Assembly: GCA_964016885.1 (NCBI GenBank)
Contig: OZ024750.1
Location: 7,192,001-7,256,000 of the forward strand
DNA: 64,000 nucleotides
From: Eledone cirrhosa
Lineage: Eukaryota
Direction: 5' to 3'
The notes below the pieces were generated by a model. That model saw only the letters and a list, made by a program, of their open reading frames with translations. It was not told where the DNA came from and did no database searches. Shown piece after piece: positions 495 through 54,700 of this stretch. Position 1 is the first letter of the stretch, and each line of letters opens with the position of its first letter. The translations under genes were made by a program, and so were the position numbers.

Positions 495-550
495 ACTTCT
501 ATATATATTTCGATGATAGCCATTGAATGGCTATGACCTCATCAGGCAGT
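495..550 (-). ncRNA. Type I hammerhead ribozyme-like motif (sense to Slo1 pre-mRNA)
   Basis: ACTGC-CTGATGA-G GTC ATAGCCAT TCA ATGGCTAT CAT C-GAAA-TATATA-TA|GAAGT, followed by AATAAA. Intact core, G-C at the base of stem II, palindromic stem III, AUA site, stem I 4/5 paired. Confidence 0.7.
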
Positions 551-612
551 TAGTCAGTTCTTAGATATGCCAGCTCTGTGTTTATAGTGTTGATGGTATC
601 AGAGCCTTGGGA

Positions 613-48700: not shown

Positions 48701-51700
48701 CAGTAATACACTAGGATAATTGCTGGCCTTGTGCCAAAAGTAGAAATAATTATTACTATTGTTATTATTACAATTACTATTATTACTATTGTTATTATTA
48801 TCTATATTTACGCAAGCTTTCTTACCGGGAATTACAGTAGACAAACAAGAACTAACACTAAATATGTAGAAAGAACAAGATTTACATTCCACAGAACTAA
48901 TCAAAATTGGATGATTGTTCTTTCTTCCATTAGCAACTATTTCAAGACACAGTGTATAAATACATATACATACACATACATATACATACATACATACATA
49001 CACACACATACATACATACAAATACAGACACACGCACACAGAAATACACACACATACATACACCTATACGCACATACACACACATTACACTCACACACAC
49101 ACAAATACACATACGCACACACAAAAATACACACACACATTACACTCACACAAATACACATACACAAGCTCAAAAATACACACACACACATATATACATA
49201 TACAAATACAGACACACACACACACATACATATATAACTTACATACTTTATTACAGCTCACGATAGAATCTATTTTTCTTTTATCTCAATAGTTTTCTAC
49301 TAATTATGAATAGTTTCCAGCTCCAAGCAACAGCTTACGGTATGTTGATGCTTGAAGGCTTCTCTAGATAACATCTTTTATAGGCAAACATCAAAGAAAG
49401 AGAGGAAAAGAGTGCCAATAAGTACCATAACTATTAAAATTATGAGTACTTTAACATAATAATTATTGTCAGATGAAAATAGATGATCAGTTTAAAGATT
49501 TGTTGAACACAAGAGATAAAATGAAACATATTTCATTAGTTTGTCTAGTCACCAAAGTAGGTAAGTATTGAGGAAGGAAGATCATATCTATTTTAGTTTG
49601 TACTTGAATAGAAATATTTTTCTCTTCATATAGTGATGTTGTATATATTGTTCTTGTCAGTTTTGACCAAAAATGTTTAAGTTTTGTTCAGTTCTGATTG
49701 AGTAGACATATCATCAAAGGTGTTCTAATTGTGACCATCATGTCTTTTTCTCACGGTATAGTGTACTTTGGGCTACATTATCCAATGTGTCTTTTCCGTT
49801 TTCTAAGATTGAGGTGCCATTGTTAGCTTGGAGTACTTAAAGTAAATATAGTTGATAGTGCTAGAAGATCTTCACATATCAGATTATTGTTAAAAATTGT
49901 TTTTACTACAAATTTGTCATAAATACTTATTTCATGGTATTATGCTAAACTGAAGTTAATCAAATTCAAACATAGAACCTTAAACTGTTAAACAATTTTT
50001 CAACTATATTATGTTGATTGCACAATATTACAGATCAGAGAGTCTACCTGGAGGTAGAGCCGCTACTCTGAATTGAGAGATCACAGCTCCGATACTGTGG
50101 GCATGTGGTAAGAATGTCACAGGAAAGAATTGCTGGAAAGATTTTACGGGCAAAACTAATCTGTAGGAGACCCAGGGGTAGACCCTAAACAAGATGGGTG
50201 GATAACATCCATGAGCTTGGCTGGTCTCACTTGGGGATCCAGCCGGATCAGTTGGAGATGGTTGCTTCTGACAGGACCTGCTGGGAGGAGTGTTTGAGGA
50301 CTCTGTCCCCACAACCCTCTCAGGAATAAGTGGGTGAAGAAGTACAATATTACATATTCCATATTTTCCTCTTAAATTATGTAAGTTGTTGGTTGGTACT
50401 AGTTGAATAATACTATATAGTCAGTTTTAAATGATGTTGTGTTGGTACTAGATAGATAGTACTGTATCAACCGATTGAATCAAACAACAAGATCACAGAC
50501 TTTTCCATTTCTGATACTATCTATCAGGGATGTCGAAGGAACTGAAAAGAGTTATAATATTGTAATACTAGAGGAATATACCAAGTTAGACATCATGTAG
50601 GGATCAAATAAGAATTGTAATATTGTAATATTAGAAATATACTATATTACCATTTTAATGTTAATATCAGAAACACTAAATTGTTAGGAGAGAAAAAACA
50701 ATGGAAAGAGAAGAAAAATAAAGGAGAGAAAGAAGAAATAAAGTTGATTGAAGGAATAAAATGAAAAAAAGGAAGCAAAAGAAAAAGAAAAAAAAACAAG
50801 AGAAAAAAAAGGAAAGACGAAAATAGAAAGAAGAGAAAACTAATTGCGTGGTCCTATCTGTGAGCAATAAGATATCCAATAGCTAGAACAAGCTTGGCTT
50901 AGTTATTTATTGAAACAAATTCTTTGTCAGAAGAAGAAAATGATGAAAGGTTTTGAAGGATTGCAGTTTTACACATTTCTTGTGTCAACCATGAACTGTA
51001 TATCTATGATACTCTATAGTTTACATCTAAACTCTCTGCTATGTTATTCCATGTAACACTATTTCATATATAAGGATAGAATTTCATGACTATTCCTGTT
51101 TCGAACAGATTACTACATATCTGTTTCAGTCAGAAGAAAACTTTGTTAAACTAGTATGCGAAAAAACAAAAAAACAAAAAAAAATAAAGAGAACAAAAAA
51201 AAAAAACAAAGCAACATCAACAAAAAATAAACAAAACAACCTTCAAAACAAAATAAACAACAAAAACAACAAACATCACAAGCAAATGAGGGGGCACCTA
51301 TATGGTCATTTATCTCCAAGAAATAGCAGTCAAATCTTCCAACATATTTTTATATAAGAACCTTACATTAAGTTACTATCTTAGTAATGAAATAGTTAAT
51401 AATTTTAGTAAATCTCTCGAAATTCTTCATTAATTAATTGAAATAGGTTGTATATCATTAGAAATATGGCCAAAACCAGTTCTGGCTCTATGAAATAAAA
51501 CCACCCATTTTAAAGGTTTCCAATTTAAATTAATAGCTTCCAACATAATTGTATATAAAAACCTTACATTAAGTTACTATCTTAGTAATGAAATAATTAA
51601 TAACTTTAGTAAATCCCTCAAAATTATTCACTAATTAGATAAAATAGAGTGTATTTCATTAGAAATGTGGTCAATGCAGTCCTGACAGGGTTAATGAGAG

Positions 51701-54700
51701 TGACACTGCAGTAACTCTTATGACAGTATCAGGGTTCCAGTCATGCACTATTCCCACCAGGCTTTAATCTTAGATTACCAACACAAAATCTAAACAAATT
51801 CTTTTATCAAGCAATTAAAATTCTTTTGAACAAACTACAGTCAATTTTACCTAGACAACTTCCTCTTTTTTAAATTCTGAAATATTTTACATAACAAAAT
51901 ACATTTAGATCATACACATCTACACTATTAATATCTCTTTTATATTTACTTGGCTATCTACAAAACAGAATAGCATAATATTTATTTCAGAAAACGACGT
52001 TCAAATATTCTTAAGCATAATATTCTATACACTGTATTTGTTATTCAGTTAAAACATGATTTGTCAACCAATAAGCTCATAAGATAAATATTTACACAAA
52101 TGACTTTCAATTGATATCAAAATCTCAATAGGGATAAAAAAGAGAAATTGTGCTCAAATAAATTCTTATCATTATTTCTTAATTTACTTTGTTGATAGAG
52201 ATTTTTCAGAAAAAAAAAATTCTAAGAACAAAAGATAAATAAATATATATATGTATGTAAATAAAAAATTCAATTTCAAATCAATAAAGCAAACATTTCC
52301 AAGAACCTGTAACACACATCACTTTTCATATATATATATATTTTTAAATTTCAAATATTCTCCAAGACAAATATTGGTAGTTAGTAAAGGTTAAGGAATT
52401 ATATTGACCATTCATATCATTAGAGAATAGCAAATATTTCTTTCTTTTCTTTATTTTGTTTTTCTTTAAACAGAAAATACAAAACCAAACTACAATGCCA
52501 TCCATTAACACTAATGTGATGGGATGTCTTTATCTGAAATTACTGTTGTGAAGCAATGAGGCAATTAATAAATTGACATTAGATTATTGTTTAGTCTATA
52601 ACTTCTTCTGCTAAACATTGTGTAAGTATTTAATATTGTAAAGTGTTTTCCCCGGGGGATTGTCTGGCTGCTCTCTCTTTGCACTGGTTGCCATCGAGAC
52701 ATCAGGTGTACTTGGACCCCTACTGCCGAGCTCCTCCGCAAGATCAGAACTTCAACGGCACATCTGAAAAAAGAGCCCTGCTAGGTGGGGTGGCTGTTGC
52801 ACCAGGCGGGTGTCGCTGGCCATTGTCCCTAGGATTGCTTTTGTGGTCTTGTCTGTGGGGTGTAGCCCCATTACCACAGTACCTTAGGCCCTTTGCCTTT
52901 CCTTTGGACAATATTGGTGGTGTAGAGAAGGGGTGACTGCTGGTCTCCCATAAACAACCTTGTCCAGACTTGAGCCTCAGAGGGGAACCTTCTAGATGAA
53001 AATCCCATGGTCATTCATTACTGAAAAAAGGGTGTGGGTGTGTGTGTGGAGGGTTGGGGTTGGTGGGGGCTGTTTACCCTTTAACTCATCAGGAGGCCTC
53101 AATAGTTCATCAGACAGATATTCTTAAAACCTTTTAAAAAAGAGGAATGCAAAGGTTCACAAAAATATTGAATCTAAACATGAAAGTTGGTCACACACAC
53201 AAACGATTGATATCACAACACAGCTCTGGAGTCTTATGTTATTTACCTTTACTCTTTCTAAATCATTGGCATCCATAACCGTGCCTTGGAAAAATTCTAC
53301 TTGTGTAAAATGCCTCTTAAGCAACCCTTCAAGTTCTAAATCAGGGAGTTGCCTGAAAAATAGAAATAAATGAAATTCAGGTTTGTATTACATAATTGTC
53401 TTGTAAAAAAAAAAATTAAATAAATGATGTACCAGACCCTCTTATACAGAACTGTTCTCTCAGTTCACTTATGTTGTGCTGTTCATCCATATTATACATC
53501 CACCAGAGTATGCTTGCTTATATATATATCATCATCATCTCTCTCTCTTTTTATGCCTTTATATTCCTTTATTAGATAACTTTTATACAATTAACACCTG
53601 ATGATGTCACCAGGATCCTATGGAACCTGGTCATTGAAATGTGCATAGTGTTTGTAATAAATCTTTGAAGGAATTTCACCAGTCCAGCCTCCTGTCATTT
53701 TACTCAATAATATATATATATATATATATATATATATATATATATATATAATTATCATCATCTCCGTTTAATGTCCATTTTTCCACACTGGCATGGGTTA
53801 GACAAGTTATCCTGTTGTGAGCAATGCCAGGTCAGTTGACCATGTCTTACTCGTACAAAACCAATTTCAGCTTATATATATGATAATTTATTTCCCCTTT
53901 GTCTGAAATAGTTTATAATCATTTTTACATTTTACCTAAATATCATATCAATATCTTAAAATTAAGAGAATGCTGTATCATTCAGTTGGTTTCTATTCTT
54001 ATGAAATCACAACTGTACAGGCTGTACAGAGTTCCAGTCTAGTTTATGCAGCAATAAGCAGATGAAAGATAAATATCTCCTTTGATAAGATAACTATTTT
54101 TCAGTTGAATAAACTTGAAGTAATGTGAAAATAAATATCCTTTGTAGAAATTCAAGTAAAGTCCTTCAAAAGACACCAGCTTATGATTTAGGAGCTGGTT
54201 ATCATCATCATCATCATCATTGTTTAACGTCCATCTTCCATGCTAGCAAGAAAGCAACGAAATGATCAAGTGGGGGGGTGTTGGATGTTCGTTTTCTGTA
54301 TCTGAATTGCTGCAACCAAATTCTAAATTGGTGCACCCGTCTAACATGAACAGTACCAACATGGTGTGTCTCAGTTCTGCATATACAATTAAAGTTTTCT
54401 ATAATGATAAATGATTTTAGCAAGATTTTATTGACCATTTGAACATTTTCTTTCTATATTTGAACAAGCAAATACAAACATCCACATTGAATACTGTAGA
54501 ATAGTTATACACACAGTTATATACTTACATATATACACACATATTTATATACACATGAACATAAACATGCATGCATGTATGCATAGTTGTAATGAAATTA
54601 CTTACGTATCAATAAATATAATCTCTACATCAACATCTTCTCTGTCTTTGTGTAAGAAATCTTTCAAGAAATTTGAAACTGAGTCATAAGTAATATGGCC

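Follow-up and report, generated by a model that had tools for sequence, protein, structure and literature searches.

Hammerhead ribozyme motifs in introns of the Eledone cirrhosa Slo1 gene are mostly pieces of common repeats, probably of Penelope-like origin

The Slo1 gene of the octopus Eledone cirrhosa contains seven short sequences that resemble self-cleaving hammerhead ribozymes, five of which (S1-S5) are found on the minus strand, i.e., in the sense of the Slo1 pre-mRNA, and two (S6 and S7) on the plus strand. They reside in a 64-kb stretch of the forward strand of contig OZ024750.1 (GCA_964016885.1, positions 7,192,001-7,256,000), referred to below as the window. An original prediction, made from this DNA alone, suggested that cleavage of the nascent transcript at these sites could influence exon choice or transcript output, and named neutral transposon relics as the alternative. 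The question is therefore whether the motifs serve the gene or only reside in it. The motifs are real, of a known kind and found in an ordinary locus. Six of the seven are pieces of five multicopy repeat families, and we consider it very probable that these six, which occur at no more than background density, are relics of Penelope-like transposons or retrozymes that rarely or never cut the pre-mRNA. The Slo1 motifs are most likely neutral, probably without a role in gene regulation.

The repeat nature of the six motifs is apparent from DNA searches of the same genome, in which 40 candidates were scored per family. The first-look candidates numbered 46 for the S1 subfamily, 1,345 for S2, 1,885 for S3, 1,796 for S4 and 2,266 for S7, totals that are not copy numbers; a 22-mer from S1 had 2,981 exact genome matches (control, 0). 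Because the window copies are 93-99% identical to dispersed relatives, they look young. The view that several unrelated ribozyme families share this pre-mRNA was borne out to the extent that five multicopy families are present, but the motifs are not seven independent ribozymes, as S3 and S6 are the arms of a single inverted duplication.

The motifs are more frequent than expected by chance, but not more frequent than in the genome at large. A strict hammerhead descriptor matched four window sites (S1, S2, S3 and S7), whereas 100 block shuffles gave 0.53 matches on average and reached four only twice, and a chance origin of S1-S4 and S7 was rejected. For comparison with the background, copies were counted using one library of family members (152 sequences). 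Clusters with a single member (21) and an AT-rich family of two, judged to be noise, were discarded before counting, and S2 and S3 were entered manually; since sequences from the window are themselves part of the library, the counts favor the window. The window holds 6.0 copies per 64 kb and Slo1 as a whole 3.9, compared to 7.0 in eight other genes (600 kb), 10.1 in 40 evenly spaced 10-kb tiles and 8.3 in a set of 20 tiles from contig C10, on which Slo1 resides, and at least six copies were obtained in ~80% of simulated 64-kb samples. The first version of the descriptor gave two sites in the window and 5.9 per 64 kb of tile sequence, and a relaxed version gave 4.0 and 5.5-6.7 per 64 kb, respectively (shuffles, 0.2-0.7). 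Neither the library nor the descriptor counts revealed any enrichment of hammerhead copies in the window or in the whole gene over background, and the notion of a Slo1-specific cluster is not supported by these data. Since most 64-kb stretches are expected to hold as many motifs, those found here matter little for Slo1. Outside the window, Slo1 holds six more hammerhead-family copies (at window-relative positions ~119510, 91694, 86048, 78577, -23032 and -24178), which include, toward the 3' end of Slo1, an inverted pair with a spacing of 1.1 kb.

The position of the motifs within the gene follows from tblastn searches with Slo1 proteins labelled Octopus bimaculoides (P0005-P0008), which place Slo1 on the minus strand over ~198 kb of contig C10 with an exon-by-exon match of mostly 93-100% identity; splice signals were read at the exon edges 34715, 23078 and 9776. 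In this exon map S1-S7 are all intronic, and direct reading confirmed each motif at the place and on the strand originally given, as well as the predicted cleavage positions of S1-S5. S1, S2 and S3 are found within the alternatively spliced linker region, as had been pointed out, and three of the five insertion events are located in linker introns; these introns, however, make up ~58% of the window, and targeting of the linker region was rejected.

The core CUGANGA...GAAA...UH that had been attributed to all seven motifs is found in S1, S2, S3, S6 and S7, while S4 has a U3-A8 variant (UUGAUAA) and S5 departs further, as discussed below. The minimal type I architecture is supported, with a palindromic stem III that is exact in S1, S3, S4 and S6 and nearly so in S7, whereas a short hairpin takes its place in S2. 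The closing pair at positions 10.1-11.1 is G-C only in S1, A-U in S2, U.U in S3 and S7, and A.A in S4. For the whole window, no hammerhead was found among the Rfam matches listed (150 of 337), which were mostly microsatellites matching miRNA models. Local Rfam scans of S7, S4 and S1 gave no hammerhead model at E<=10. Such negatives are uninformative for minimal hammerhead motifs. Repeat finding across the window was dominated by (TA)n tracts.

The parent element is seen for the S1 family. Longer S1 copies run upstream into a GIY-YIG endonuclease, and in 17 of 30 GIY-YIG loci an S1-family hammerhead is found 1.1-1.4 kb downstream on the strand of the open reading frame (ORF). Locus L275 contains a complete element in which the ORF is flanked by two pseudo-long terminal repeats (pLTRs); these repeats, 96.6% identical over 377 nt, both carry the S1 hammerhead, and the S1 copy in the window is 95.7% identical to the L275 pLTR over 184 nt. 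The parent ORF, read by eye, displays a reverse-transcriptase-like YRDD motif, DKT, a CxCx5C linker, C-terminal GIY-YIG, CxxC and CxH, with RWR in place of RWK in L272-L274. Because Pfam and PDB searches with this ORF gave no relevant match, its identity as a Penelope-like element (PLE) rests on these motifs, and the parent is treated here as Hydra-like only. In its testable features S1 is a minimal hammerhead of a PLE pLTR, in agreement with the origin originally proposed. The elements at L275 (273-4549), L272 (1037-3580), L273 and L274 represent a young Hydra-like Penelope family with at least 150 GIY-YIG matches at >=89% identity, open frames of up to 847 amino acids and a microsatellite-rich 3' untranslated region in two variants.

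For S2, S3, S4 and S7 a putative PLE origin is judged from their architecture. Inverted truncated copies were found in 17 (S2), 19 (S3), 4 (S4) and 6 (S7) of 19 loci each, such that 17 of the 19 other S2-family copies have an inverted partner and all 19 other S3-family copies examined have the inverted-pair form; together with the microsatellite or (TA)n flanks, these copies make the four families fit PLE by-products (PMC8557442). ORF fragments near L024 and L006 were considered as S4 and S7 parents and rejected, as no hammerhead is found downstream of these ORFs; the L024 ORF is itself located downstream of the S4 copy. Another hammerhead-like family, with a CUGACGA core, a long stem II, the palindromic ACUAAUUAGU and tandem occurrence, is found at L024 (~750-950 upstream of the S4 copy) and L032.

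The families represented in Slo1 are part of a very large population. A single pattern composed of one core and stem III has at least 111,978 matches genome-wide, compared to 206 for the reversed control. In 1.55 Mb fetched by position the same pattern gave 65 matches, 48 of them distinct, and 45 of these 48 have at least four of five stem I pairs, a pairing that the pattern does not demand. The mean of 4.26 stem I pairs over 19 distinct combinations is larger than in all 2,000 partner shuffles (maximum 3.84), several stem I pair types occur among the 48 distinct S1/S7-type matches, and the stem II region of this type folds at -8.3 against -3.1 kcal/mol when shuffled. This covariation test covers the S1/S7 superfamily level, where the motifs are real hammerhead folds at the level of sequence, with a putative capacity for cleavage. 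The ends of the stem II region among 110 matches were A/U in 39, U/U in 23, G/U in 15 and G/C in 10, and the 235 motifs in the fetched loci include 20 multi-member clusters. Extrapolation from the 40 tiles gives ~345,000 cores that are intact (bootstrap 225,000-480,000), a figure inflated by two tandem arrays. This abundance in octopus is apparently unreported before: no report of octopus hammerheads was found in the literature searched, which left subscription papers and supplements outside, and the main text of a 2026 Octopus vulgaris repeat annotation (PMC13282606) lists Penelope-like families without hammerheads or ribozymes.

An explanation of why such motifs would seldom cut in Slo1 starts from the parent element, which carries a minimal type I hammerhead in both pLTRs, as seen for S1. 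According to the literature, a tandem precursor RNA would likely be cut by a hammerhead dimer formed via the palindromic stem III, possibly aided by the element protein. Single minimal motifs are described as not cleaving (PMC4209133) and dimers as cleaving weakly (PMC4209133, PMC6765202), and a Poseidon PLE hammerhead is reported to be inactive without the element protein, with no RNA-seq read ends at its site (PMC11167929). Retrotransposition would likely leave by-products, i.e., truncated 3' ends and inverted duplications, at (TA)n sites, and the Slo1 copies would be stranded 3' fragments that either have no dimer partner or are folded into hairpins, such that cutting is rare. No same-family, same-strand pair is found among the 12 hammerhead-family copies in Slo1, and all sense copies are predicted to be disabled because they have no such partner.

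The anatomy of the individual sites is consistent with this explanation. The S1 hammerhead has the core CUGAUGA, a G10.1-C11.1 pair and, as its palindromic stem III, AUAUAUAU; the predicted cleavage site is AUA, at 500/499. Its stem I has a G.A mismatch that is absent from most ORF-linked copies (of the 17 in the S1 family, the 3' strand is GCAGT in 14 and GAAGT in 2), because of which S1 is predicted to be disabled; forcing the hammerhead fold in context has a predicted cost of 7-15 kcal/mol. An S3-family tail fragment without a hammerhead is found directly beside S1 (315-422, minus strand), which on its other side adjoins a (TA)n-rich compound microsatellite of ~2 kb (600-2670). The S2 hammerhead (CUGAUGA core, GUA site at 14465/14464) overlaps an arm of a predicted ~43-bp hairpin of -66 kcal/mol (z score -12.6), and its fold in context is predicted to cost 50 kcal/mol. 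In the S3/S6 duplication the minus arm (S3) has a CUGAAGA core, a 2-bp stem II, the palindromic ACAAUUGU and a GUU site at 24210/24209, while the plus arm (S6) is degenerate, with three of five stem I pairs; the predicted hairpin is at -104.8 kcal/mol (z score -19.2), and forcing the hammerhead fold is predicted to cost 64 kcal/mol for S3 and 65 kcal/mol for S6. Dimerization of S3 with S6 in cis was rejected, as the arms are on opposite strands. The sense copies S2 and S3 are thus predicted to be disabled by sequestration in their own inverted arms, which, together with a density at or below background, speaks against the proposed role in exon choice. S7, which is followed by AATAAA, has the same architecture as S1, with a CUGAUGA core, an AUA site and the near-palindromic AUGUGCAU, at a predicted cost of 5-6 kcal/mol in context.

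The S4 hammerhead (UUGAUAA core, palindromic ACAGCUGU, GUC site at 40496/40495) has a folding z score of -6.5, and its hammerhead fold is predicted to be ~7.8-9 kcal/mol above the minimum in context. S4 is a monomer in the window; a second same-strand copy of its family, 317 nt away, was found in 1 of 19 loci, and S4 may be a monomer of a retrozyme-like unit of ~317 nt. The hammerhead is flanked by the consensus 5' splice-donor words CAG/GTGAGT and TAA/GTAAGT at 40542 and 40463 (minus strand, Slo1 sense), both of which are preserved in most S4-family copies. At L154 (8460-9764) and L167 (8630-9683), ~310-nt tandem arrays were found that have a compact hammerhead per unit and one inverted copy before the array; by their organization they look like non-LTR retrozymes.

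Several observations weigh against the explanation of the motifs as neutral relics. Linkage to a PLE ORF was demonstrated for S1 only; with S2, S3, S4 and S7, searches using three PLE-like proteins gave no ORF link within 1.5-kb flanks. Stem I of S4 is kept in context with a predicted pair probability of 0.52, and the folding models leave aside co-transcriptional order, trans dimers and chaperones. Positions of the background tiles were picked by hand at even spacing rather than drawn at random, and thresholds were fixed after the data had been seen. Finally, intact unpaired copies in the eight other genes are divided 3 sense:15 antisense (p=0.008), an imbalance suggesting that copies in the sense orientation are not altogether neutral; in Slo1 the imbalance is opposite in direction (Fisher p=0.06). 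In the window, which was chosen for its motif pattern, five against two motifs (p=0.45) are too few for a strand bias, as was anticipated, and the same is true of the whole 198-kb gene, where the unpaired copies are 5 sense:3 antisense in addition to two inverted pairs (p=0.73).

The 3:15 division raises the possibility that intact, unpaired sense copies are active enough in vivo to do mild harm and are removed from introns across the genome, with antisense copies and pairs locked in hairpins being tolerated; the Slo1 copies would then be weak survivors, which is compatible with their being relics. Core-mutated copies in the same eight genes are 4 sense:3 antisense, copies in unoriented tiles are divided 21:17, and coding fragments of long interspersed nuclear elements (LINEs) in these genes have no bias (14:12). 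Inverted pairs are more common in genes (20 of 45 events) than in tiles (13 of 68, p=0.006), although the edges of 10-kb tiles can split such pairs, and retrozymes are reported to be depleted from Xenopus introns (bioRxiv 10.64898/2026.07.22.740005). However, 90 kb from two further, held-out genes gave 2 sense and 0 antisense copies, and while the pooled intact unpaired copies are 5:15 (p=0.041), the numbers become 10:18 (p=0.18) with Slo1 included and 9:18 (p=0.12) for all unpaired copies. The contrast in orientation between intact and mutated copies does not reach significance (p=0.066), two genes account for 11 of the 18 antisense events, gene spans were inferred from Pfam exon matches, and poly(A) or splice signals or an insertion preference could yield the same bias. 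The sense-strand deficit in other genes is therefore a weak lead rather than a result, which the small held-out set did not reproduce, and we regard purging of this kind as a tentative, less favored reading. It is similarly doubtful, though conceivable, that this genome both carries one of the densest hammerhead loads found on record, with 20 or more families, and purges intact unpaired sense copies from introns by frequent cleavage in vivo, sparing antisense copies and inverted pairs locked in hairpins; if so, self-cleavage would filter transposons by their orientation in cephalopod genes throughout the genome.

If the repeats do affect Slo1 processing, double-stranded structure or cryptic donors would be at least as plausible as cleavage. 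An effect via the S2 and S3/S6 hairpins, which are possible substrates for A-to-I editing, or via the S4 donor words is unlikely on the present data: the hairpins are predicted to be very stable, editing is reported to correlate with repeat double-stranded RNA (PMC5625713) and S4 contains two sense-strand words that resemble GT(A/G)AGT donors, but 23 such words occur on the sense strand of the window and inverted pairs are common throughout the genome. A search of sequencing runs with a stretch that does not include S4 listed no RNA run containing it; a second organism shared 10% of its words.

S5 is the only motif of the seven that is single-copy (one match in the own-genome search). It has an 8-nt core, CUGACUGA, a 7-bp stem II, five of six stem I pairs and a GUC site at 51088/51087 on the sense strand, features that could belong to a domesticated, conserved, non-canonical hammerhead. 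A descriptor tailored to S5 post hoc found a like match in 0.7% of 300 window shuffles and none in 1.2 Mb of background, a frequency that overstates the case because the descriptor was fitted to S5 afterwards. Domestication of S5 is very improbable, given that it deviates from the core consensus twice (in the length of its core and by an additional C ahead of GAAA), was missed by every standard hammerhead descriptor used, has no relative among the 235 motifs and fetched loci, and has a folding z score of -0.18, with the core paired to the cleavage site in the predicted minimum-energy fold. From its sequence, S5 may be either a decayed relic or a chance look-alike.

That one or more sense copies were co-opted, such that cleavage during transcription adjusts the exon choice or output of Slo1, is hardly credible: S1 and S3 are found ~0.7 and ~1.1 kb upstream of alternative exons, unpaired copies are more often in sense in Slo1 than in the other genes (p=0.06), and amniote intronic hammerheads offer a precedent for which definitive proof is described as lacking (PMC6765202), but the motifs fail the enrichment and sense-bias tests for a domesticated intronic regulatory ribozyme, look young, are predicted to be sequestered (S2, S3), are mismatched (S1) and have no partner in cis, and were noticed in a window picked for this pattern, more than half of which is linker intron.

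The coordinates of the hammerhead-bearing repeats and Slo1 exons are collected in Table 1. In addition, the window contains six LINE-like C-terminal coding fragments, which we take to be of the RTE type (four sense and two antisense, e.g., 28438-28908 on the minus strand, 3397-3606 and 25639-25850).

Table 1. Hammerhead motifs, the repeats that contain them and Slo1 exons, in window coordinates
Feature	Position	Strand	Description
S1 element	430..615	minus	pseudo-LTR of a Penelope-like element; 3' fragment of 186 bp flanked by (TA)n tracts
S1	495-550	minus	within 430..615
S2 repeat	14420..14576	minus	fragment with inverted partial duplication, arms 14481-14576
S2	14457-14530	minus	within 14420..14576
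S3+S6	24090..24325	both strands	one inverted duplication; predicted ~65-bp hairpin on either strand
S3	24205-24245	minus	one arm of 24090..24325
S6	24252-24292	plus	other arm of 24090..24325
S4 repeat	40365..40584	minus	U3-A8 variant hammerhead closed by long stem I extension
S4	40468-40559	minus	within 40365..40584
S5	51082-51139	minus	single-copy stretch
S7 repeat	53559..53710	plus	fragment antisense to Slo1, (TA)n at end
S7	53593-53652	plus	within 53559..53710
Slo1 coding exons	9687..62842	minus	tblastn with Slo1 proteins P0005-P0008
Slo1 exons, upstream part	62842-62750, 54718-54605, 53351-53244, 47245-47081, 46537-46379, 43362-43249	minus	tblastn, approximate
Slo1 exons, downstream part	38469-38296, 37471-37388, 9776-9687	minus	tblastn, approximate
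Slo1 alternative exons	34715-34680 and 23078-23034	minus	found in some isoforms only
Further Slo1 alternative exon	starts ~200 nt past low end of window	minus	found in some isoforms only

From the above discussion, the importance of the motifs for Slo1 itself is small, and the multicopy families at background density agree with the relic alternative that was offered at the outset. The main value of the locus is in the questions of genome-wide abundance and orientation to which it leads; the 112,000 or more copies in this genome, spread over many families, are numerous enough for a test of whether minimal PLE hammerheads, which are poor cleavers in vitro, cut RNA in vivo.

The intronic hammerheads that are ultraconserved in amniotes are named HH9/HH10. 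The Slo1 motifs are like these amniote ribozymes (PMC6765202) in being intronic and in part on the sense strand, but differ in that the former are conserved, whereas those in Slo1 are young-looking multicopy repeats with minimal folds. A closer likeness is found with the minimal hammerheads of metazoan PLEs (Cervera and De la Pena 2014, PMC4209133), with which the motifs share the type I topology, a short stem I and long stem II, a palindromic stem III (here mostly 8 nt), the U3-A8 variant, the pLTR location, the many families per genome and the occurrence mostly as single dispersed motifs, with opposite-strand pairs 100-700 bp apart. In contrast, the G10.1-C11.1 pair, described there as highly conserved, is found in a minority here (often A-U, U.U or G.U). 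The S1 parent resembles the Hydra-clade PLEs (Craig et al. 2021, PMC8557442) in its DKT, CxCx5C, C-terminal GIY-YIG, CxxC and CxH motifs, in the hammerheads in pLTRs and in the (TA)n insertion sites; by the same motif comparison it differs in having RWR rather than RWK, and its unit is ~4.2 kb as compared to generally <3 kb. S4, with a self-paired fold in a ~317-nt unit that has no ORF, is similar to non-LTR retrozymes (Cervera and de la Pena 2020, PMC7229834; Li et al. 2026 preprint), except that it is a monomer in the window and in tandem in only one of the loci examined. In number, the genome-wide matches to a single pattern exceed the ~2,000-9,000 motifs of the genomes listed in PMC4209133, where ~9,000 are reported for Xenopus and 4,000 for coelacanth, and the reported load of the axolotl is 126,247 hammerhead motifs (PMC7229834).

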